DNA of 62,813 nucleotides, filler included, from Malassezia furfur (lineage: Eukaryota): the NCBI GenBank assembly GCA_052055015.1. It is 33 parts of 33 records of this genome, joined end to end, with 100 filler letters (N's around TTAATTAATTAA, not from the genome) between each part and the next. Parts side by side here need not be neighbours in the genome. Positions count along the whole stretch, not along the records: positions 59,209 to 60,962 come from JBQJIT010001060.1; 32 more parts are not named here. The stretch is one strand, 5' to 3'. How positions within the stretch are numbered: position 1 is the stretch's first letter; each line of letters starts with the position of its first letter. The notes under the pieces were generated by a model. That model saw nothing but the letters and a program-made list of their open reading frames with translations. It had not been told where the DNA came from and did no database searches. Positions 9,865-62,810 of the stretch are shown one piece after another. Both the position numbers and the translations under genes were made by a program.

Positions 9865-9963
9865 GCCGCGGTTCCCAACAACCGGCTGTCGGACGAGGAG
9901 CCGCCGGCGCTCGGCCTGCCCGAGTCGCTGAGCTTCTCGCCGATGCTGATGCAATATCTGTAA
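9865..9963 (+). CDS. 3' end of an unidentified protein
   Basis: AAVPNNRLSDEEPPALGLPESLSFSPMLMQYL* from the contig edge, followed by an AT-richer 3' UTR-like stretch. Confidence 0.5.
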   Translation, partial: AAVPNNRLSDEEPPALGLPESLSFSPMLMQYL

Positions 9964-10040
9964 AGCGCGTGCCTACGTTCGATCGCCCACCCACCCACAT
10001 CCTCCCTACCTTGTCCGTAGCTGTATAGACCTTGTCGCGT

Positions 10041-13776: not shown

Positions 13777-15616
13777 GCACGCACCCACGCGACGAGGCGC
13801 GGCACGGCGAGCGGCGTGTGCGGCGCATCGACGAGCGGGCCCGCACACAGCGCGGCCATCGCGCGCTCGGCGTGCGCGGCGAGCAGGTGGAGCTCGTGGC
13901 GCTGCTGCACAATCACGCGCTCCTTTTGGCGCGCGTCGGCGCACTGCTCGGCGGCGGCCGAGAGCTGCGCGGCGAGGCGCTGCGCGTCCTGCACGCTGTG
14001 CCAGTCGTCGAGCAGCGTAAACAGCTCGACGCGCAGCGCGCTCGGCAGGTAGTGCGGCGCGTCCGCGCCGAGCGCGCCGTAGTAGTGCCCCACGGTCGCG
14101 GCAAAGTAGCGCCGCAGCGCACACAGCTCCACGGTCGGCAGCCCCGCGCGTGCCTGCAAAAAGGTGAGCGTGTCCTGCACCCATGCGCCCACGAGCCGCG
14201 CGGCACGCGCGTCCACCGCGGCCGGCGGCATGCGCGGCGCAGTGAGGTACACCACCCGCGCGGTCTGCACGCGCGCGGGCGTCAGCCACGTCTCTTCGTG
14301 CACCGGGAGCGCCGCGGCCTGCAGCGCGGCGAGCAGCGCAACGTACACGGGCGGCTGCGTGTACCCGAGCGCGTGCGCCGCGGCGTCGCGCAGCTCCGCG
14401 TCCTCCGCGCCGAGGTACGGCACCAGCAGCGGCACGACGTCGGCGCGCGGCACGTCGGGCGTATCGAGCGCGGTCGCCACACACAGCGCCGCGGTGTAGG
14501 TGCGCCAGCACCGGCGCGCAAACGGCGTCGCGTGCGCGCGCGTGCGCGACGAGCCCAGCACGGCATCGAGCGCCTTGACGCGCGCCAGCACGTGCAGGTA
14601 GAACGCGGTGGCGCTCGCGGGCATGCGCGCGGCAAACGCCTCGAGCAGCGCGGGGAGCGCGTGCTGCCACAGCGCCTGGCTCGCGGTGTCGCTCGCGGCG
14701 CACAGCGCGCTGAGCGGCGCGGCCGCGTCCCACCGCGCAACGCGCGCGCGCTGCGACGCGGACAGCTCGGGGTGCTCGGGCGCAAGGAAGGCGCCGCGCG
14801 CGCCCTCGAGCAGGTGCACGATGCGGCGCGGCGCCGCGGGCAGCGGGCGCGGCGCGCCCTCGTCGTGGAGCACGGCGAGCAGGCGGAGCACGGTGAGCGC
14901 CTGCTGCCGGAGCGCGACCGACGGCGCGCATAGCAGGTACACGGCGCACCCCTCGATCTCGTCGAGCGTGTCGAGCGCGGGGTCCGGCGCGTCGTCGTAG
15001 CGCCGCTGCATCCACCACACGTCGAGCAGGTCGATGAACAGGCCGACCGTCTGCGTGAGCTTCGGCAGGAGCGTCTCGGCGTGCGGGACGAGCTCCCAGA
15101 CAAAGCCGTCCTGGCGGATCGCCCAGCGCAGGTACGCGCGCACGACGCTGTGCGCGCGCTCGTTGCTCTGCCGCGCGATGCGCAGCAGCGCCGCGGCGGA
15201 CGCGCGCTGCAGCGCGGGCTCCGCGCTGTACTGCGCGCGGAAGAGCGTCGTGAGCATCGTCGGCAGCGCGAGCGCCGGCGACGCACACAGCGGCCACGCG
15301 TCGAAGCACGCGCGCAGCAAATCGAGGTACGCCTGCTGCTCGCGCGCATACACCACCGTAAACGCGCCGTGCACGTGCGTGCGCACCACAAACTGCTCGC
15401 GGTCCAGCGCGGAGCGGTCGCCGGGCACGCTCGGCAGCGCCGTCCCGCGCGCCACATGCGTGCGCGTGTCAAACACGCTCGTGTCCTTCACCTGGTAGTC
15501 GGCAATCAGCGCGATCTGGCCCATCACCTCGAAGAACGCCGCGTACGCCGCGCCGACCGCCGCGCTGGGGTACGCCGGCGCGGCGCCCGCGTCGAGCCGC
15601 ACGTCGCGCGCCGCGG
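13777..15616 (-). CDS. TAO3: Tao3/Mor2/Furry cell morphogenesis scaffold (internal fragment)
   Basis: HEAT-like helical protein with LFIDLLDVWW...LDEIEGCAVYLLCAPSVALRQQALTVLRLL and AERAMAALCAGP, typical of the MOR2-PAG1 N region. Confidence 0.75.
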
Positions 15617-15736: not shown

Positions 15737-17303
15737 ATGGCGGAGACCGCGGGCCGAGGCACGCCCGCGTCGGCGCGCGCGAGCGTCGCGGCCGACGAGC
15801 TCGGCGATACGCGTGCGATCAAGGCGCGGCTGCTGTCCGTGCTCGGCGACCATGCGACCGATTACTGGGCGGCGCTCGGCGATTTCTGTACCGCGGCGAT
15901 CGACCGTGCGGAGTTTGCCGCACGCGTGGAGCCATGGCTGCCCGACGAGTATGGTGGGTGCAGGCGTCCGCGCATCAGCGACTAACGCAGTTCCCCTGCA
16001 CAATGCGCTTGTACTGAGCATGCTCGCGGCTGCGAGCGCGCCGCCACGGCACGCGGGACGCGGCGCGCCCGGCACGACCGCGGCGCCCACCTCGCCGATC
16101 CGCGTGCGCGACGCATCGCTGCTCGACACGGACGCAGACGAGGACCTCGAGCATGAGCCGCCCGTGAACGGCATCGACACGCGGAGCAGCAAGCGCCTGC
16201 GGCACATGTACGCGGGCCTGACGCAGCGCGAGCGCGCGCGGCTGCAGCAGCTGCCGACCGGCAGCCAGAGCGGTGTGCACACCGCGGCGACTGTGTGGGC
16301 CGGCGCCGGCGCCGAACTGCTCGAGAAGAAACGCAAGGAGGACGAGAAGCGCAAAGCCGTCGAGGAGCGGCGCCGCACGCGCGAGGCCAAGTCGGCGATC
16401 GGCGCCGTGTCCTGGCGGGCGCATGCGGTGCAAAGCGCCGTGCAGACCGACGCGATCCGCGCACGTCTCTCCAACACGATGCAGGAAACGTTTGCACGTG
16501 GCGTCATGGTGCCCCACTGCGTCGAGATGCACGAGCTGCCCGACGTACATACCCTACAGGACCGCATGACATTCACCGCCGTCGAGGCCGGCCTCGCCGA
16601 GGGCGTGCATGTGCAGGCCGCGGCGGTGGTGCTTGCCGCGCTCGAGGACCACCTGCGCAACATTATCAGCAGCGCGCTCGCGCGCGTTCGCGGCCCATCG
16701 CGCGGCGATGCGCATGCATCGACATTTGGGCGCCTCAAGATGCCCGACATGGCTGCGCTGCTCGACCTGTCGCCGCACGTCGTGGTCGAGCCGCTGGGAC
16801 AGGGCGCGCTGGAGCGCCTGCTCACGCCGGACCTCGACGACTCTGTGGCGCCGACCTCCTCGGGCCCTGCAGCAGAGTCGTGGGCGCCCGAAGAGGCGCT
16901 CGCACGGTATGCCCAGGCATGTGCCACGGCCAAACTCGCCGACTCGGCCGCCGCGACGCCGCCCACCGACCCCAGTGCAGACGCGGCGATGCGTATGCGG
17001 CAGCAGCTGCAGAACCAGCGCGACTCGGTGCGCAATCGCGTGCTGTTGGACCAGCTCGCGCCGCTGCGCATGCTCGACCGGCCGGCCATCGCCGAGGCAA
17101 TGGCGCACCACGAGGATCTTGCGGTGGAGGTGCGCCGGCCGCACCCCAGCACCGCGCTTGGCCAGGCGCTCGCACAGCACTACCAGTCTGGCACGCATCA
17201 CCACCACCACCACCACGCGCACCCGAACCCGACACACCGGCACAAGGACGAGTTCTTTGATGTGGTCGACCCGGCCGCCCTGCTCGGCCAGTTGTGTGAA
17301 TAG
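15737..17303 (+). CDS. HFI1: SAGA subunit Ada1/Tada1; 37-nt intron at 15954-15990
   Basis: IKARLLSVLGDHATDYWAALGDFCTAAIDRAEF...EY|VPLHNALVLSML and histone-fold CVEMHELPDVHTLQDRM...EAGL...ALEDHLRNII. Intron GTGGGT...CTAACGCAG joins the frames. Confidence 0.85.
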
Positions 17304-21507: not shown

Positions 21508-23330
21508 CACGGCGCGGCGCTGGGCGGCGGAGCGCCCGGCGCGGGCAGCGCGGACGGCGCGCGTCCGCCGGTCGAGTTCAACCACGCGATCAACTACGTG
21601 AACAAGATCAAGCAGCGCTTCTCGGGCGAGCCAGACACCTACAAGCAGTTCCTCGAGATCCTGCAGACGTACCAGAAGGAGCAGCGGCCGATCCACGAGG
21701 TGTATGCGCAGGTCACGGTGCTGTTTGACCATGCGCAGGACCTCCTCGAGGAGTTCAAGCAGTTCCTCCCCGACACGGGCGCGCCGCCGCCGCCGTGCGC
21801 GCCCGAAGCGGAGCAAGCACGGCAAGGGCGACAGTGTGCCGCGGTCGGCGCACGGCGCGGCATATGCGCTGCCGCCCGGTGCGGAGATGCACGAGATGTA
21901 CGGCGCGCCCGTGCCGCACGGGGGTGTGCCGCCCGGCTACGAGCTGCCGCCCGAGGCGCCCGCGCCTGGGTTTGTGCCCGGTGGGGTGTACGACGTGCCG
22001 CCGTATGCGCCGCCGCCCGTGATGGCCGCGCCGGGCGGTGGGGCGCCTGCGCCGGGCGGTGTGGTGCAGCTGCCGCACATGGCGACGGTCGACGAGGTGG
22101 CGTTCTTTGAGCGCGTCAAGAAGCACATTGACGACCGCGCGGCGTACGTCGACTTCCTCAAGCTGCTCAACCTGTACACACAGGACGTGATCGATATCGG
22201 GACGCTGGTGGACCGTGTGACGCTGTTCCTCGGCGGGCAGCCCGAGCTGCTCGCCGCGTTCAAGACGCTCACCGGCTACGACATGGGCAAGCACGGGTGG
22301 CTCGAGAACGAGGAGCCCGTGCTGGAGAACGTGCCTGCGCTCGAGCGCGAGCGCTTCGACCTGAGCACGCGGCGCTCGTACGGCCCGTCGTACCGCAAGC
22401 TGCCCGACTCCGAGGTGAACCTGGCGTGCAGCGGACGCGACCCGCTGTGCTGGGAGGTGCTGAACGACACGTGGGTGAGCCACCCCACGTGGGCGAGCGA
22501 GGGCGAGTCGTTCAACCCGCACAAGAAGAACGTGTACGAGGACGCGCTGTACCGCTCCGAGGAGGAGCGCCACGAGTACGACTACCACATCGAGGCGAAC
22601 CTGCGCACCATTGCGCTGCTCGAGCCGATCGCCGCGCGCATCGCCGTGATGGACGCCGAGGAGCGCGCAAGCTTCCGCCTGAAGTCGGGGCTCGGCGGGC
22701 AGAGCAAGAGCATCTACCAGCGCATCATCAAAAAGGTGTACGGGCGCAACCACGGCCTCGAGGTGATCGCCGCGCTGCACGACAACCCGTCGGTCGCCGT
22801 GCCGGTCGTCCTCGCGCGGCTCAAGCAGAAGGACGAGGAGTGGAAGCGCGCGCAGCGCGAGTGGAACAAGGTGTGGCGCGAGGTCGACGCGCGCAACTTC
22901 TACAAGGCGCTCGACCACCAGGGCATCAACTTCAAGTCGACCGACAAAAAGACCATCACCACCAAGGCGTTCGTCCACGAGATCGAGACGCTGCGCACCG
23001 AGCAGCAGCAGCGCCGCCTCGCGCTCGACCCGAGCCTGCCCGCGCTCGCGCCGCGCTTCCAGCTCACGTACGCGCTCGACGACGGCCACGTCGTCCTCGA
23101 CGTGCTCCGACTCGCGCTCCACTTTGTCGACCGCGCCGCGTCGGGCTTCAGCGCCGGCGAGAAGGAGCGCGTCGTGTCCACGCTGCGCCAGCTGCTCCCG
23201 CGCCTCTTCCACATGGACGCCGCGGTGCTCGACGCGCTTGCGTCGCGCCGCGCCGCGCACGACGACGACGACGCCCATGCCCGCGACGAGACGCCCGAGT
23301 ACGCCGCCGAGCCCGCCGCAGGGGGGCGCG
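21508..23330 (+). CDS. SIN3: Sin3 corepressor (PAH2, PAH3, HID), partial, with a frameshift near 21795
   Basis: [17 protein letters not shown]...[14 protein letters not shown] in one frame. [33 protein letters not shown] and EEERHEYD lie in another frame. Confidence 0.95.
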
Positions 23331-31063: not shown

Positions 31064-32867
31064 AAGCGCTTCTGCACCAACCTGCGGCGCACCGCCAAGG
31101 AGGAGCGCGTGCTGTTCTACTACAACGGGTACGGCGTGCCGAAGCCGACGCCCGGCGGCGAGATCTGGGTGTTCAACAAGGCGTACACGCAGTACATTCC
31201 CCTCACACTGTACGACCTGCAGACCTGGCTCGGGAGCCCCTGCATCTACGTGTGGGACACGAGCGCCGCGGGCAACATTGTCAACAACTTCCGCACACTC
31301 GCCGAGGTGCGCGCCGAGGAGGAGGCCAAGGCGGCGCTCAGCGAGGGCCGCGAGCCGCCGCCGCTGCCCAACGCGGACGGCATCACAGTCGACGCGCACG
31401 GCGAGCCGCAGTTCCCGCTGCGCGAGTCGATCCACCTCGCCGCGTGCGGCGCGGACGAGATCCTGCCGATGAACCCCGACCTGCCCGCGGACCTGTTCAC
31501 GTGCTGCCTCACGTCGCCGATCGAGATCTCGCTGCGGTGGTTCGTGCTGCAGAACCCGCTGCCGAGCGCGCTGAACGTGGACATGGTGATGAGCATCCCT
31601 GGGCGCCTGCAGGACCGGCGCACGCCGCTCGGCGAGCTCAACTGGATCCTCACCGCGGTGACGGACACGATCGCCTGGACGGTGCTGCCGCGCGCGCTCT
31701 TCCGCCGCTTCTTCCGCGACGATTTGATGGTCGCTGCGCTGCTGCGCAACTTCTTGCTCGCGGAGCGCATCATGCGCTTCTACCACTGCACGCCAGTGAG
31801 CCACCCGCGCCTGCCGCCGACGCACAACCACCCGCTGTGGGACTCGTGGGACTTGGCCGTGGACCAGTGCCTGGCGCAGCTCCCGACGCTCCTCGCGAAG
31901 GAGAACGCGCGCGTGGTCGCCGCGAACGGCGGCGACCCCATGCCGCCGCACCTCGCCGCGTTCGAGTACCAGCACAGCAGCTTCTTTAGCGAGCAGCTCA
32001 AGGCGTTCGAGGTGTGGCTTTCGCAGGGCGACGTGAGCCGCCGCGCGCCGCGCCGGCGCGTGCAGCGGCACCCCGTGCTGCTCGCGAGTGGCCCGGGCAC
32101 GACGCGCCCCGAGATGTCTGCCGCTGCCGAGGCAGGCGCCGTGCACGGCTACGAGGCCGACGCGGCGCTCGCCGACGACGCCGAGGCGCATGGGTTTGAG
32201 CACGACCCGCCGAGCCAGCTGCCGATCGTGCTGCAGGTGCTCCTGTCGCAGGTGCACCGCCTGCGCGCGCTCATCCTCCTCTCGCAGTTCCTGGACCTCG
32301 GGCCGTGGGCGGTGAATCTGGCGCTGAGCATCGGCATCTTCCCGTACGTGCTCAAGCTGCTCCAGAGCCCCGCGGCGGACCTCAAGCCCGTGCTGATCTA
32401 CATCTGGGCGCGCATCCTCGCGGTGGACCACAGCTGCCAGGTGGATCTGCTCCGCGACAATGGCTACATGTACTTTGCCACGGTCCTCTCGCCCTTCCAG
32501 GGCAACACGCAGGGCTCCTGGACCGCGCATGCCACGAGCGGCGCCGCCCCCGCGGCCGGCAGCGGCACGCCCGGCGCGCTGCCGATCCCCAACGTGTCCG
32601 AGCACCGCGCGATGTGTGCCTTCATCCTGGCCGTCTTCTGCCAGGACTTCCCGCTGGGGCAGGACGCGTGCCTCGAGACAGACGTGATGGACAGCTGCCT
32701 CGAGCACCTCGAGGACGACGACTTCCTGTTGCGCCAGTGGTCCGCGCTGTGCCTCGCGCAGCTATGGGACAACAGCGAGGCGGGCAAGGCCAAGGCGATT
32801 GCCAAGGACGCACACGGCAAGCTGTGCTGCCTGCTGAGCGACGCGTCGCCCGAGGTGCGCGCCGCGA
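31064..32867 (+). CDS. KOG1: Raptor/Kog1 TORC1 subunit (internal fragment)
   Basis: LFYYNGYGVPKPT, DLPADLFTCCLTSP, LGELNWILTAVTDTIAW, QLPIVLQVLLSQVHRLRAL, ALSIGIFPYVLKLLQS. Confidence 0.97.
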
Positions 32868-32967: not shown

Positions 32968-33688
32968 CGTCCGCCGCACGCAGCACCGCACCGAGCGCCA
33001 CCGCCTGCGCCGGCGTCGCCGTGCGGACCCACACGAGGCCATTCAGCCCAATCGCCGCCTCGAACGGGAAGTGCGACGCGACGTGCGCCAGCAGCGTGTG
33101 CTTGGGGTTGTACAGTGCATGCGCCAGGCGCAGACTCACGGGCCACACCATCGTGACGCCCTGCTCGGCATCGCGCTTCAGCTCGCCGAGCCCTTCGGCC
33201 TTGCCGCTCACCGCATCGACGCAGCTCAGCTCGGGCTCCGCCCACGGCTCGGCACTCACCACGCGCGCATACACCAGCGCACCCGCCTCGAGGTTCGGCC
33301 GGTTGCGCCGCGTCGCGCCCTCGAACGCCAGCACGGGCAGCGACGCACTGTGTGCGGAAAAGAGCGTCACCGTATACGACTCCATGCCGCGGTTCGTCAC
33401 TTGCCCAATCACCAGGTCGTCGGCGGCCGGCACGTACCGCCGCGCAGGGCTATCGACCCACCACCCATGCACGGTCGTGGGCGCGGTGCCCGCTGCGCGT
33501 TTTTCGCCTTTCGGCGCCTTGCTTCGTTGCTTCGTCTCGACGTGGCCCAGTGCGCCGCCCTGGATCGCAGTGAGCGATAGCTCGTCGGGCGACGCACGCG
33601 CCTGCGTCGGCGTATACAGGACTCCCGGGCCGAGCTTCACGGCATCACTCGCTTGGGGTATCACATCGCCAGGCAGCACAACGACCAT
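32968..33688 (-). CDS. RRP40: Exosome subunit Rrp40 (3' truncated)
   Basis: VVLPGD..KLGPG, RRYVPAADDLVIG, AFEGATRRNRPNLEAGALVYARV, PFEAAIGLNGLVWV. Confidence 0.95.
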
Positions 33689-34192: not shown

Positions 34193-34759
34193 ATGCCGAT
34201 TTTGAACACGGTTGTGCGTCGCAGTGTGACGGCCGCGCGGCCATCGCTCGCCCGCTCGCTCCAGGTGTCTGCGCGCCACATGAAGGAGGAGGGCAACGGC
34301 AACTACATGGCCGGCGTGCCGATCCCGCGCTCCGGCGAGCGCTCGACGCGCGATCTGATCCGCGAGCAAGTCGACCGCGAGAGCGAGCCGACGCCCGTGT
34401 CGATCGTGAGCGATGCGCCGAGTATGTACTGTGCACACTGACCCAGACTCTCTCCACCAGCGTGTCGTGCGCATCTACCAGCCGGCGAAGCCCGCGACCA
34501 TGTCGGGCCGCGCCGGGACGAAGCACTGGCGTGTGGACTTTGACGTCCTACAGGGCTCGGGCCGCTGGGAGAGCCCGCTGATGGGCTGGGCCAGCACGTA
34601 CGTTGCACCACTGACGCAGTGCGGACTCGCAGCAGGCGCTGTACATGAAGTTTGATACGAAGGAGGACGCCGTGTTCTTCTGCCAGAAGCAGGGCTGGGA
34701 CTTTTTCATCCAGGAGCCGCACAAGGCGCACATCCCGCCGAAGCAGTACGCGAACAACT
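34193..34759 (+). CDS. Complex I subunit NDUFS4; introns at 34422-34446 (25 nt) and 34598-34619 (22 nt)
   Basis: Spliced product reads ...VSDAP|NSLHQRVVRIYQPAKPATMSG...GRWESPLMGWAST|ADSQQALYMKFDTKEDAVFFCQKQGW...KQYANN. It has a mitochondrial presequence. Confidence 0.95.
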
Positions 34760-38970: not shown

Positions 38971-40416
38971 TTACACCCACACATTGTCCTGCAGCTCGGG
39001 GCCGACGCCCACGGCGTGCACGCGGAACCCGATCTCGCGCAGCTTCGTTGGATTGACGACGCGGCGGCCATCAAACACGACCGCGGGCTTGCGCATGATG
39101 TTGAAGACTTTGACCCAGTCAATCGCACTGAACTCGTCCCAGTCCGTGGCGATGACGACGGCCTCGGCGTCGTGGCACGCGTCCAGCACACTGGGGCACA
39201 CCGTGACCGCCTCCTCGACTGCATGTGAGCGCTGCGCGCATACGTACCCGCCTTGCGGTCGTCCGTCACCCCCGGCTCGGTGAGGTCGAGGAAGATTTGC
39301 TCGCGCTTCACCTTGGGGTCGTAGATGGCAATGTGCGCGCCCTCCTGACGGAAGTGCTTGCACAGCGTGATGGCCGGCGACTCGCGCTGCGTCAGTGCGG
39401 CGACCTACCGTATCGCCCGTATCCTTTTTGAACGCAAAGCCGAGCAGCGCCAGGCGCTTGGCCGTGACCGTGTTGAAGAGCGTCTGCACGACCTTTTTCG
39501 CAAAGCGCGCCTTGGAGAACTCGTTCATGACAATCACCTGGCGCCAGTACTCGGCGACCTCGGGCAAGCCCAGCGAGCCGCTCAGGTACACGAGGTTCAA
39601 AATGTCCTTTTGGAAGCAGCTCCCGCCGAAGCCCACACTCGCGCGCAAAAAGTGCGGCCCAATGCGCCGGTCGACGCCGCATGCGTCGGCCACCTCGTAC
39701 ACGTTGGCGCCCGTCGCCTCGCAGATCGCCGAGATGGCGTTGATCGAGGAAATGCGCTGCGCCAAGAGCGCGTTCGCCGCCTACACCGTCAGTAGACCCA
39801 CGTACCAGTTTGGTCAGCTCGCTGCTCCACAGCCCCGTACGCAGCACCCGTTCCTTGGGCACCCACCGCTCGTACACCTCGCTGAGCAGCTCGGCGGCGC
39901 GGTGGCCCTGCGCGGTGTCGAGGCTGCCGATCAGCACACGGTCGGGATGGAGCAGGTCCTGCACCGCCGTGCCCTCCGACAGAAACTCGGGGTTCGACAA
40001 GATCTGGAACGGCGTGCCCGGCTTGCTGTTCGCCTCGAGAATCGCGCGCATGGACGCTGCGGTGCGGCACGGCACCGTCGACTTCTCCACAATGATCTTG
40101 GGCGTCTGCGCGATGGACGCAATGCGCCGCGTGGACGCTTCGACGTAGCGCAGATCGGCCGCGAAGCCACTGCCGATGCCCGACGTCTTGGTCGGCGTGT
40201 TGACGCTCACAAACACAATCTGCGCCTCGTCGATGGCCTTGTCAATGTCCGTCGTGAAGAACAGGTTGCGACCGCGGCACTCGCCCACGATCGCCGCCAG
40301 ACCCGGCTCAAACACGGGCAGCTGCGTCAAGTCCTCTGAATTCCACGCGGCAATCCGCTCGGGGTTCACGTCGACGATCGTCACGACAATGTCGGGGCAC
40401 TGCTGCGCCAGCACCG
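38971..40416 (-). CDS. UGD1: UDP-glucose 6-dehydrogenase (5' truncated); introns at 39781-39805, 39387-39408 and 39219-39247
   Basis: [77 protein letters not shown]. Splicing the 25-, 22- and 29-nt introns restores the motifs. Confidence 0.97.
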
Positions 40417-51766: not shown

Positions 51767-53529
51767 CGCGGCCCGCCTGCCGACGCCGTCGAGGCGCTCG
51801 TCGCCGAGGCCAAGCGCCGGCAGCACAGCGCGGTCGACGCCGCGGCCGACGCCGATGCGTCGACCGAGTCGAGCCGAGCGCTACGTCCGCTGCGTTTAAG
51901 CAGCCTAAATGCGAGCGGCACGCCGCTGCTTGGCACGACGCGGCGCACGAGTGCCGCGCTGCCGAAAGCCGCGCGCCGTGCGTCCAACATTTATTACAAG
52001 CCAGCACAGGCGGCACAGGCGGCGCAGGCGACGCAGACCGATGCCGCCGCGCCGCGTGGCCACCATGCGCCGAGCACACGCAGTGCCCAGTCCTCCAATA
52101 CTTCGTGGCCGCTCACGGACGCGGCGGGCAGTGCGCTGTTCAGCCCCCGCTCGGCGGCGTCCGACTCGCCCGGCGCGACGAGTATCGAATCGAGCGACCA
52201 CACCCCGAAACGTGCGCCGCGGCCGACGGCGCCCGCGCCCGAGCCTGTGCTGGCGCGCGTGCAGTCCGAGCTGCACGCGGAGCGCGAGCGCCATTTGCAC
52301 GAGATCACCGAGCTCCAGCGCGAGGTGGAAGAGGTGCGACATGTCATGGGTGCACAGCTCGCCGGCGTTGCTGGTGCGCGCGATGCGGCCGAGGCGCGTG
52401 TTGCCACGCTTGAGGCGGACACGGCGCAGCTGCGCGAGCGGCTTGAAGAGGCCGAAGGCGTACGTGACATGTATGCGGACGACGTTGAAGGCTGGCGACG
52501 GCGGTGCAACGACCTGGAGCAGACGATCCGCACGCAGCAGCTGCGCTTCAAGCAGGAGCAGGCGTGGCGCAGCGCCGCGATGAAGCGTATGCAGGCGCTG
52601 TCGAACCGGCTCAAGACGCACGAGGGCTCGTTTGACTCGACGTCCAGCTCGCAATTTGGCGCGCTGAGCAACGTGTCGAGCGTGTCGTCCGCGAGCCTTG
52701 TGGACGGCGCATGGGACGGTGTGCCGGAGCTGCCGACGCTGCCCGAGATGCCCTCGGAGGAAGAACTGGGCGACTGGTCGTCGCAGGTCGCACGCCAGCT
52801 GTCCAAGCAGCCACCCGAGACGACCGCGCCGCAGGACCTCGCGCCCGAAACCGTGCATCTGCTTGCCGACATGCGGCAGCAGATCATGGGCCTCTACGCG
52901 GAGCTCAAGCTCGAGCAGTCGAACCACGAGCTGACGCGCTCGCAGCTGCGCGACGCCCAGCATGCCCAGGCCATGCAGCCCGGCGCGTTTGCGGGTGTGG
53001 CGTCGCCCGTGACCACATTTACGCCCGCCGACGTGTCGCAGACGTCGAGCGCCGCATCGAGTGCCCCGCCGAGCGTTTCGACGCCGCGCTCGCGTACCTC
53101 GTCTGCGTCGCGGCGCCGGCGTCAGGCCTTCCTGCGCGACGACGGCACGAGCGGCTCGCAGAGCACCACACGCTCGCACACCTCCTCGCTCGACCCCGGC
53201 GAGACGACGGCCGACGTGCTGTTTGCGTCGCACGGCAAGAACTCGTCGCTCGTAGGCCTCGGCCTGGGGCCGCCTCCGCGGCGTTCCGCGACCGCCGAGC
53301 GCTGGGACTCGGTCGACGCGACGCCGCGCCCTGACGCGGTGCGTGCGACGCGCGACGAGCCCGCGTGGCCCGAAACGAGCCAGGACACCTCGTGGCTCGA
53401 CGAGGACTCGCTGTGGGCCGGCCAGGAAGCGGCGGCGCACCCGAACGAGACGCCGCGCCCGTCAACGGTGCACGCCGATGCCGTGACGGCCGCCGCTGCC
53501 TCGACGCCGGAGCCGACGCGCGCGGCGCC
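51767..53529 (+). CDS. Coiled-coil protein, unidentified (internal fragment)
   Basis: Frame open across the contig, with heptad-rich segments (ERERHLHEITELQREVEE, WRRRCNDLEQTIR, LYAELKLEQSNHELTRSQL). Confidence 0.65.
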
Positions 53530-59108: not shown

Positions 59109-59209
59109 NNNNNNNNNNNNNNNNNNNNNNNNNNNNNNNNNNNNNNNNNNNNTTAATTAATTAANNNNNNNNNNNNNNNNNNNNNNNNNNNNNNNNNNNN
59201 NNNNNNNNC

Positions 59210-60133
59210 CACCGCGACCACCGCAAGCTGTACCGCGCGCTGTGCATCCTGCGCGACACCGGCACGCGCCAGTCCGAGTGGGTCCGTGCGCAGGACGCCG
59301 CGGACGACGCGCCGCGCCCGCCGGCGTTTGGGCAGCGCCGCCTCCTGTTCTGGGTATGGAGCGAGCGCGCGGCGCTCAACGCGCGGCTCGACCGGCGCAT
59401 CGGGCAGATGGTCGAGGTACGTCGCCCCCTCACGCAGCGCGGACTCCTCGACGAGATCAACGCTCTGCGCGCCATTGCGCGCCAGGCGCCTACGGACGTC
59501 GACTACACACGCGGCATCTACCAGGCGATCGGTACGTGCGCCGCTCACGCAGGGTACAAGGAGTTTGACGCCTACCTCGCGCACCGCGAGCGCCACGGCG
59601 ACGACGCAGACGCACAGCGCCTCTTTGACGCGGCGATCGCCGCGATGCAGGTCGCTACGCGCCGCTACGCGAAGCGGCAGACTGCGTGGATCCGCAACCA
59701 GCTGCTCCCTGCCGTGCACGCCGCGCAGGACCGCGGCGAGGAGGTGTATCTGTACGTGCTCGACGCCACGGACCCCGCGCGCTGGGACGCCGACGTCCGC
59801 CGGCCTGCCGAGGCGATCACCCAGGCGTTCCTCGCACACGCGCCGATGCCCGAGCCGCGCACGGTGTGTGCGGCGGCCGACGAGCTGCTGGCACGCGCGC
59901 CGCGCAAGCACGGCGCGCTCGAGCGCAACGCGATGTTCACGTGTGAGGTGTGCACGAGCGACGCGGCGCATCCGTTCCGCGTGCGCGAGACGGAGCGCGC
60001 GAAGCACCTCCACTCGCGCACGCACCGCTACGCGCTGAAGCGGCGCACGCGGCAGCAGTGGATCGCCGAGCACAAGGAGCACGGCGAGGAGGTGCGCCGC
60101 ACGCGCGAGGCGCGGCGCCAGGGCAGCGGATAG
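59210..60133 (+). CDS. MOD5: tRNA dimethylallyltransferase (5' truncated); two 21-nt introns at 59417-59437 and 59532-59552
   Basis: HRDHRKLYRAL, RLDRRIGQMVE|RGLLDEI, GIYQAIG|YKEF, TRRYAKRQTAWIRN, and a C-terminal zinc finger CEVC...HLHSRTH. Confidence 0.95.
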   Translation, partial: HRDHRKLYRALCILRDTGTRQSEWVRAQDAADDAPRPPAFGQRRLLFWVWSERAALNARLDRRIGQMVEVRRPLTQRGLLDEINALRAIARQAPTDVDYTRGIYQAIGTCAAHAGYKEFDAYLAHRERHGDDADAQRLFDAAIAAMQVATRRYAKRQTAWIRNQLLPAVHAAQDRGEEVYLYVLDATDPARWDADVRRPAEAITQAFLAHAPMPEPRTVCAAADELLARAPRKHGALERNAMFTCEVCTSDAAHPFRVRETERAKHLHSRTHRYALKRRTRQQWIAEHKEHGEEVRRTREARRQGSG

Positions 60134-61062: not shown

Positions 61063-62810
61063 TCGGGCGCGGCGTGTATGCGTCGCCCGGCGCGCTCGCC
61101 GTGCTGCTGAACGCGTTCGGGCGCCTGTCGCACGTGAGCCGCATCGACGAGCTGTACACGATGGGCATGCACGTCGTCGCGGCGGCGGCGGCGGCGGCGA
61201 CGACGTCGGCGGCGCTGCACGCATACACCGAGGGCGTGGCGTGCCCGACGCTGCCGGCGGTGCGCAGCCTCGACTCGGGCCTGAACAATGCGCTGCAGAG
61301 CCTTGCGCGGGCCCACGGGCAGCTGCAGGCCGACGAGCTGTACACGCGGCTCAAGGCGAGCGTCGGGCGCGGCGTGTATGCGTCGCCCGGCGCGCTCGCC
61401 GTGCTGCTGAACGCGTTCGGGCGCCTGTCGCACGTGAGCCGCATCGACGAGCTGTACACGATGGGCATGCACGTGGTGGCGTCGCGCCCGCACGACCGCG
61501 AGTGGCGCGTGTCGCACTGGGTGCAGCTCGAGGACGGGATGGTCACCGCGCTGTCGCACGCGGGCCTAGGTGAGCGTGCGAACGCGCACCGCGAGCGGCT
61601 GATCGCCGCGGGCCATGTGCCGAGCGCGAGTGCGTACGCGGCGCTGATCGCGACGATCCAGGAGCGCACGGACGACGCGGTGGTGGCCGAGGAGCTGTTC
61701 AGCGAGTCGCAGCGCCTCGGCGTGCGGCCGACGACCTACCTGTACAACACGGTGATCTCGAAGCTGTCGCGCGCGCGCAAGGCGGAGCAGGCGCTGCGCC
61801 TGTTTGACGCGATGCGCGGCGCGAACCTGCGCCCGAGCAGCGTGACGTACGGCGCGGCGATCAACGCGTGTGTGCGCACGGGCGACGAGGCGCGTGCGAC
61901 GCAGCTGTTTGCCGAGATGGAGGCACAGCCGTCGTTCCAGCCGCGTGTGCCGCCGTACAACACCATGATCCAGTACTACGTGCACAGCTGCATGGACCGC
62001 GAGAAGGCGCTGCAGTACTACGAGAAGATGCAGCAGGCGGGCGTGCGCCCCAGCGCGCACACGTACAAGCTGCTCCTCGACGTCTGGGGCTCGACCGCGC
62101 CCGTGCAGCCGGACCGCCAGCAGGCGGTGTTTGCGCGCCTCGTCGCCGACCGCCTCGTCGGCGTCCAGGGCACGCACTGGGCGTCGCTCCTCCACACGCA
62201 GGGCACCGTGCTCCACGACCTGGACCGTGCGCTCGAGATCTTCGAGTCGATCGCCGAGCACGCGCCGGGGCCGCGCAACGGCGTGAGCACGGTGCCGGAC
62301 GCGGTCGTGTACGAGTCGCTCTTCTCGGTGTTTGTCGCGCACGGGCGCACCGACCTGATGCCCGCGTACCTCGCGCGCATGACGCACCAGGGCATCCTGC
62401 CCACCGCGTACATCGCCAACCTGCTCATCAAGGGCTACGCACAGGACGGCCCGCTCGGCCTCGTCGAGGCGCGCCGCGTGTTCGAGGCGATGATCGACCC
62501 GCCCGCGGGCATCGCCGCCGCGGGCAACCACCTGCCGCGCCACCACGGCGCGGGCGCCCTCGGGATGCACCGCGAGCGCGTCGCGCACGGCTCGCGCATG
62601 CACTCGGTCGACCGCACCAACGTGCTCGGCGCGCTCGTCAACCGCGAGCCCAGCACGTACGAGGCCATGATCCGCGCCGAGCTCGCGTTCGGCAACCAGG
62701 ACCGCGCCCTGGCGCTGTTCGAGCGCATGAAGGCACGCGCCTTCCCCGCGGCGCTCGTGAACCGCGCGCGCGCCATGTTCGACCACGTCGGCCCCCGCGC
62801 CGGGCACTAG
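61063..62810 (+). CDS. Pentatricopeptide repeat protein (5' truncated)
   Basis: PPR motifs PTTYLYNTVISKL, PSSVTYGAAINAC, PPYNTMIQYY, PSAHTYKLLL, PSTYEAMIRAE. Confidence 0.92.

Follow-up and report, generated by a model that had tools for sequence, protein, structure and literature searches.

The DNA analysed here, referred to below as the window, is a 62,813-nt stretch from Malassezia furfur with a G+C content of about 67%. It consists of 33 glued contigs of 1751–1882 nt each, ordered from longest to shortest, with joints of the form N44-TTAATTAATTAA-N44 (for example, at 59109–59208). As a result of this composition, adjoining contigs are not neighbours in the genome and the genes at contig edges are all cut. 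The contig at 59209–60962 starts within a gene for a tRNA isopentenyltransferase (MOD5), so that just the last 307 codons of this gene lie in the window, and this same contig carries the two 21-nt elements which are the subject of this analysis. The parts of MOD5, its convergent neighbour and two further genes of the window with tiny introns are given in Table 1. It should also be noted that the last contig begins with a pentatricopeptide-like ORF (61063–61560, plus strand) in which a block of ~38 residues (GRGVYASPGALAVLLNAFGRLSHVSRIDELYTMGMHVV) is repeated about 110 residues apart, representing either a true duplication or an assembly artefact of the contig end.

Table 1. Positions of the MOD5 segments, the neighbouring gene and the genes used as internal standards, counted along the window.
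Feature	Position	Strand	Basis
MOD5 partial exon, ends GQMVE	59210..59416	+	IPPT profile 119-178; exact substring of P0169; first residue corresponds to ~174 in P0010 (480 aa)
Putative intron 1, 21 nt, phase 0, reads VRRPLTQ	59417..59437	+	Splice signals; gap in Mod5/MiaA; 48-51-nt introns in L010-L014
MOD5 middle exon, 94 nt, last base is the first of the QAIG Gly codon	59438..59531	+	
Putative intron 2, 21 nt, phase 1, reads TCAAHAG	59532..59552	+	Splice signals; gap in Mod5; introns in L001, L010-L014
MOD5 last exon with zinc-finger extension, TAG at 60131-60133	59553..60133	+	
Convergent ATG3-like neighbour (Autophagy_act_C), truncated by contig end	60254..60962	-	Pfam PF03987, E 1.7e-39
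NDUFS4-like gene, two tiny introns (25, 22 nt)	34422-34619	+	
UDP-glucose dehydrogenase gene, three tiny introns (25, 22, 29 nt)	39219-39805	-	

The 307-aa translation of the MOD5 part was matched by the Pfam IPPT profile (PF01715) with 69.8 bits against a gathering cut-off of 23.6 and by yeast Mod5 (3EPH; E 5e-22), with proteins of Malassezia species being the nearest named relatives. Based on the Pfam IPPT match and on similarity of sequence and fold, the host gene is identified as a Mod5/MiaA orthologue with a predicted role in i6A37 modification. The P-loop GxTGxGKS was found in the full-length protein P0010, which is 99% identical to the window translation; the part of MOD5 in the window begins only downstream of it. 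Within an alignment of 64 sequences (P0010 numbering), the residues C418, C421, H439 and H445 of the eukaryote-type C-terminal zinc-finger extension were invariant.

The two elements have the sequences GTACGTCGCCCCCTCACGCAG (intron 1) and GTACGTGCGCCGCTCACGCAG (intron 2). The first separates M-V-E from R-G-L-L-D-E, while the second splits the Gly codon of Q-A-I-G/Y-K-E-F. They share a common geometry, with GTACGT at positions 1–6, a spacer of six bases, CTCAC at 13–17, one free base and a 3′ CAG, which places the branch A of both at +16, 5 nt from the 3′ end. A search of the MOD5 contig against Rfam returned two sub-threshold chance matches alone, the 21-mers belonging to no known RNA family. 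The first-pass annotation of this DNA had described the pair as in-frame, stop-free introns which are disguised as 7-aa insertions and whose retention would introduce no premature stop. Both are indeed present in MOD5, each being divisible by three in length and lacking an in-frame stop, and retention would introduce no premature stop, as the plus-strand frame 59210–60133 is uninterrupted through both 21-mers to its TAG.

This in-frame and stop-free state of both introns is what would be expected of an exitron-like, regulated retention, by which partial splicing and escape from NMD would yield a full-length isopentenyltransferase with two loop inserts and altered or lost activity, the ratio of the two forms setting the level of i6A37. 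The MOD5 pair also has the tightest geometry in the window and slightly off-consensus branch motifs (CCTCAC and GCTCAC, without the A at −4 which is present in eight of the ten verified introns), and both inserts adjoin conserved residues, M240, E255 and G288 being invariant in the 64-sequence alignment with P0010 numbering, while G251 and I280 are nearly invariant. These features could likewise be taken to favour regulated retention. However, a rough estimate of (1/3 × 0.8)^2 indicates that two introns out of two would be in frame and free of stops by chance in ~7% of cases, which is only weakly unlikely.

To place the elements among other intron-like sequences of the window, matches to their pattern were compared with those in shuffled sequence. 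The narrow pattern GTACGT-N5-12-CTCAC-N1-4-YAG occurs four times in the window, where 0.04 occurrences would be expected, and none of 100 shuffles reached four. With the strict pattern GT[AG]NGT-N4-25-CT[ACG]AC-N0-4-YAG, 12 matches were detected, compared with 1.1 ± 1.1 and a maximum of five in 200 dinucleotide shuffles. Only two of these 12 strict-signal introns, both of them in MOD5, are divisible by three in length, and there is thus no sign of an enriched in-frame class in the window.

A frame test was also applied to 22 candidates taken from 63 loose ones, in which the frame indicated by GC3 was compared on either side of each. With a GC3 of ~0.9 in the coding frame, the frame is readable on each flank of a candidate intron; the test is silent on candidates with lengths divisible by three, the MOD5 pair among them. 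Among the 16 candidates with lengths that are not a multiple of three, the switch predicted by splicing was present in 12 and absent in four. All ten strict-motif elements of this kind (22, 22, 23, 25, 25, 26, 29, 32, 32, and 37 nt) switch frame, with a weak contrast for the one of 37 nt. These ten frame-verified introns have the same class of 5′ hexamer, GT[AG]NGT, and a branch motif CT[ACG]AC lying 5–8 nt from the 3′ end.

The UDP-glucose dehydrogenase and NDUFS4-like genes provide good internal standards for the splice signals of this genome. In the latter, the 22-nt intron at 34598–34619 was confirmed by the Pfam NDUS4 profile, which runs to position 42 upstream of it and resumes at 44. 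In the former, the exons that flank the introns of 22 and 29 nt match consecutive parts of the UDPG_MGDP_dh models (two Pfam domains). Frame switch and Pfam continuity together indicate that 22-nt introns with a branch A at +17 are real in this DNA. Compared with this verified minimum (22 nt, with 17 nt to the branch A), the MOD5 introns are more compact by one base, which, like their branch motifs, counts somewhat against their being ordinary introns.

With 16 nt to the branch A, the MOD5 introns could have reached the smallest size that a fungal spliceosome can physically handle, a size open to them only through their being in frame and free of stops. Splicing would then be leaky and would give a mixture of the normal enzyme and of isoforms with loop inserts beside invariant residues, with its efficiency (under stress, for example) setting i6A37. 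This is considered quite unlikely; if it were true, a tRNA-modification enzyme would be governed by a switch resembling an exitron.

Several further candidates were not accepted as introns. The GC3 frames around the 19-nt candidate at 16208–16226 and around those at 31786–31825, 62421–62442 and 9958–9976 were inconsistent with splicing. The element at 33560–33597 passes the frame test but has stop codons in its flanks, and that at 21702–21738 also passes but has an unspliced reading which is protein-like. Two other in-frame, stop-free intron-like elements with weaker signals were observed, one of 39 nt at 14154–14192 (minus strand) in a long MOR2-PAG1-like ORF and one of 27 nt at 51978–52004 (plus strand) in a long ORF for a coiled-coil protein. 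The Pfam domain matches do not span either site.

The positions of the two elements, termed site 1 and site 2, were then compared with orthologous proteins. Using HMMER, each 21-mer was found to correspond to an exact gap of seven residues in relation to yeast Mod5 (3EPH) and the MiaA protein of Bacillus halodurans (2QGN). In an alignment of 167 proteins, made up of the best 150 of 17,542 library matches and other fetched proteins, 160 extend over site 1, and among these the insertion is present only in P0010 and P0011, apart from a single stray residue in P0152. At site 2, which 156 of the same 167 cover, extra residues are present in five. These five (P0010, P0011, P0012, P0015, and P0007) are all Malassezia-like, and P0011 is 88–89% identical to the window translation.

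At site 2, the introns of the Malassezia-like locus L001/P0012 and of P0015 are likewise in frame and stop-free, with 24 nt, which is in line with a retention that is regulated. The ORFs of P0007 and P0022 shift frame when read through this site. Introns of 23 and 25 nt, respectively, are deduced from their residues, and these could not yield an isoform of the kind proposed. Furthermore, most relatives are intronless at either site. The retained segment is therefore not conserved as coding sequence among the orthologues, being missing or replaced by frame-breaking introns of other lengths, and the same holds for a retained isoform. The annotated M. obtusa protein P0181, which shares a 90% cluster with P0022, reads QAIGYKEF at site 2, showing that the annotators of that species took the site as an intron.

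A metagenome scan for related MOD5 DNA provided 17 loci (L001–L017), in some of which introns occupy the same two positions in the same phase, most notably in five distantly related fungal loci (L010–L014). At site 1, introns of 49, 51, 50 and 48 nt are present in L010, L012, L013 and L014, respectively. A 49-nt intron is also present in L011 by our own reading, with the following exon starting with GG instead of RG. No intron was found at this site in L001–L009 or L016, and L015 and L017 stop short of it. At site 2, L001 has its 24-nt intron and L010–L014 have introns of 50, 53, 52, 56 and 52 nt, with none in L002–L009 or L015–L017. Of the ten longer introns, at least six have stop codons in the read-through frame (site 1 of L011–L014 and site 2 of L013 and L014). 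The nearest named relatives of L012 are Mycena proteins. The presence of introns at both sites in L010–L014, together with this affinity of L012, indicates that both intron positions are older than Malassezia.

In the public databases, the M. furfur protein KAI3623642.1 (446 aa, "LAP2 [Malassezia furfur]") contains the translation of the window exactly, with both introns as coding sequence. The suggestion that annotation of this genus may hide such introns, and the description of these two as disguised, therefore hold for this record. Being in frame and stop-free, the MOD5 introns are taken for coding sequence by ORF callers and by at least one public annotation. No spliced form was present among the 13 members of the 90% cluster, which may all be derived from DNA and of which 12 read through and one is a fragment. 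That all 12 full-length members and the NCBI record read through would be expected if the elements were exonised former introns which are no longer spliced, with the 480-aa read-through protein as the true product. The same can be said of P0011, which has the same two 7-aa read-through peptides as the window. With about 18 of the 21 bases belonging to splice signals, this identity was not judged to be significant, though it could also be compatible with constraint on the peptide.

The variation at intron 2 was also considered. P0010 differs from the window at three of 307 residues, two of which fall within the seven residues of intron 2, in line with a relaxed constraint there. If these are due to single-base changes, they would lie at intron positions 9 and 18, outside of the splice signals. 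Among the 12 full-length M. furfur-type members of the cluster, eight have TCAAHAG and four TCTAHTG. The two variants co-segregate with the few other amino-acid differences between P0010-type and P0169-type members, and P0011 has the TCAAHAG variant. Against exonisation, the only variation observed thus falls outside of the splice signals, both sets of which are intact and identical in geometry. The composition of the read-through codons is also unlike that of the exons, 5 of the 15 ending in A or T compared with 23 of the 293 codons of the exons (P 0.0046, binomial), a contrast which is in part imposed by the splice signals themselves.

When the read-through protein P0010 was modelled with AlphaFold from the 64-sequence alignment, the result had a mean pLDDT of 91.9 and matched 3eph_A (E 5.2e-24, TM 0.85), as might be expected of a true product. 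Insert 1 (243–249) was modelled as a loop between helices 226–242 and 252–265, and insert 2 (282–288) between helices 275–281 and 290–302. Inside the model, confidence is lowest at the inserts, the pLDDT dropping precisely there (72 for block 241–250 and <50 at 281–286), which counts against exonisation. The helices are unbroken and the rest of the fold is intact, making a folded retained isoform possible, and to this extent the predicted loops agree with regulated retention. The model neither shows nor excludes activity of the retained form. Taken with the intact signals, the codon composition and the annotated intron of M. obtusa, it leaves exonisation a very improbable explanation of the read-through records.

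Further features of the public MOD5 annotations were observed. LAP2 is the yeast name of leukotriene-A4 hydrolase, and the M. furfur MOD5 record bears the name of the neighbouring gene. In five Malassezia species and Tilletiaria, the MOD5 orthologue (P0002–P0006, P0181) is annotated as a fusion with leukotriene-A4 hydrolase, with lengths of 1080–1207 aa. In L001, L002, L005 and L006 (at ~800–990), MOD5 is closely preceded on its own strand by the hydrolase gene, which has a short intron after MIRK and is set apart from the start of MOD5 by stop codons. Given this separate gene and the intervening stops, the fusions look like artefacts of annotation. The hydrolase intron after MIRK appears to have been read through, in frame, in M. 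yamatoensis. The NCBI protein of M. psittaci (P0004) is without 24 residues (VLWVWSERETLCKRLDQRITEMIK) of its close relative P0002. This gap ends exactly at site 1 and looks like a mispredicted 72-nt "intron" within conserved coding sequence.

Considering the above, both 21-mers are very probably genuine U2-type GT-AG introns which are ancestral, have shrunken with the other introns of the genus and are spliced in the ordinary manner, their in-frame status being incidental. The gaps in orthologues, the homologous introns with stops or frame-breaking lengths, the splice signals with their common geometry and the third-position composition all agree with the original proposal that these are introns and not true insertions of seven residues. 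Regulated retention is, by comparison, unlikely. Splicing in M. furfur itself, and its efficiency, we infer from the DNA.

As ordinary introns, the pair would have arisen from two ancient fungal intron positions which shrank along with other introns of the genus. Each would present to the spliceosome a 5′ splice site GUACGU, a 6-nt spacer, a CUCAC branch site with its A at +16, one free base and CAG. Removal would take place as for other very short Malassezia introns, resulting in a protein without VRRPLTQ and TCAAHAG, and the in-frame, stop-free state would most simply be incidental.

Very short introns in Malassezia have already been published, and the MOD5 pair is an added case. In the curated annotation of M. 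sympodialis, a mean intron of 30 bp is given, with RNA-seq support for 5271 of 5350 introns (99%; PMC5389616). For M. restricta, the minimum intron length was lowered for annotation to 20 in BRAKER and 15 in AUGUSTUS (PMC6473144), and another report gives an average of 37.2 nt and a median of 30 (PMC9241646). Malassezia genes are also described as having "very short introns" in a review (PMC7426719). The MOD5 introns resemble these in being GT-AG introns in a range of ~20–40 nt, a phenomenon at the level of the genus. They differ in being at the low end of this range (21 nt), in frame, stop-free and unannotated in the public M. furfur protein. In the Malassezia intron literature searched, no description was found of the MOD5 introns or of an in-frame, stop-free class of intron.

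In ciliates, tiny introns which are in frame and stop-free evade NMD when retained and are hence depleted, as related in a paper which cites the original Paramecium study (PMC5014332). In its passage on lineages with introns under 30 bp, a 2026 overview lists ciliates, Microsporidia and Dicyemida, with Malassezia unnamed there (PMC13644364). The likeness of the MOD5 pair to the tiny introns of Paramecium and other ciliates (~25 nt), as these accounts describe them, is in being near the limit of recognition by the spliceosome. However, the ciliates are another lineage with a genome-wide depletion of lengths divisible by three, whereas the MOD5 case consists of two introns in a 60-kb sample, in which two in-frame lengths among 12 would fit with or without depletion.

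The definition of exitrons rests on alternative splicing that has been observed, and what is retained in them is normally true coding sequence. They are the nearest named concept for introns with the appearance of coding sequence, as introduced by Marquez et al. (2015; PMC4484396), and the resemblance lies in an intron-like segment within an annotated coding exon whose retention keeps the frame. They differ in that alternative splicing is observed for exitrons, whereas the MOD5 segments are known from sequence alone and are without counterpart in orthologues. The structures of yeast Mod5 and bacterial MiaA (3EPH, 2QGN/3EXA, 3FOZ) are alike in host gene and say nothing on the intron pair.

With a length of 21 nt and 16 nt between the 5′ splice site and the branch A, the MOD5 introns would come near to the shortest spliceosomal introns on record in any organism. 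In KAI3623642.1 and every ORF-called copy of the cluster, 14 residues are probably never made by the cell. With the default minimum intron lengths of gene finders, in-frame, stop-free introns of this size are read through without warning, and for this reason Malassezia protein sets which were annotated without RNA-seq deserve a targeted check. As retention would alter the length of the protein without a frameshift, the MOD5 introns would also offer, in a fungus that can be transformed, a convenient natural reporter of how faithful splicing is at the limit of length.
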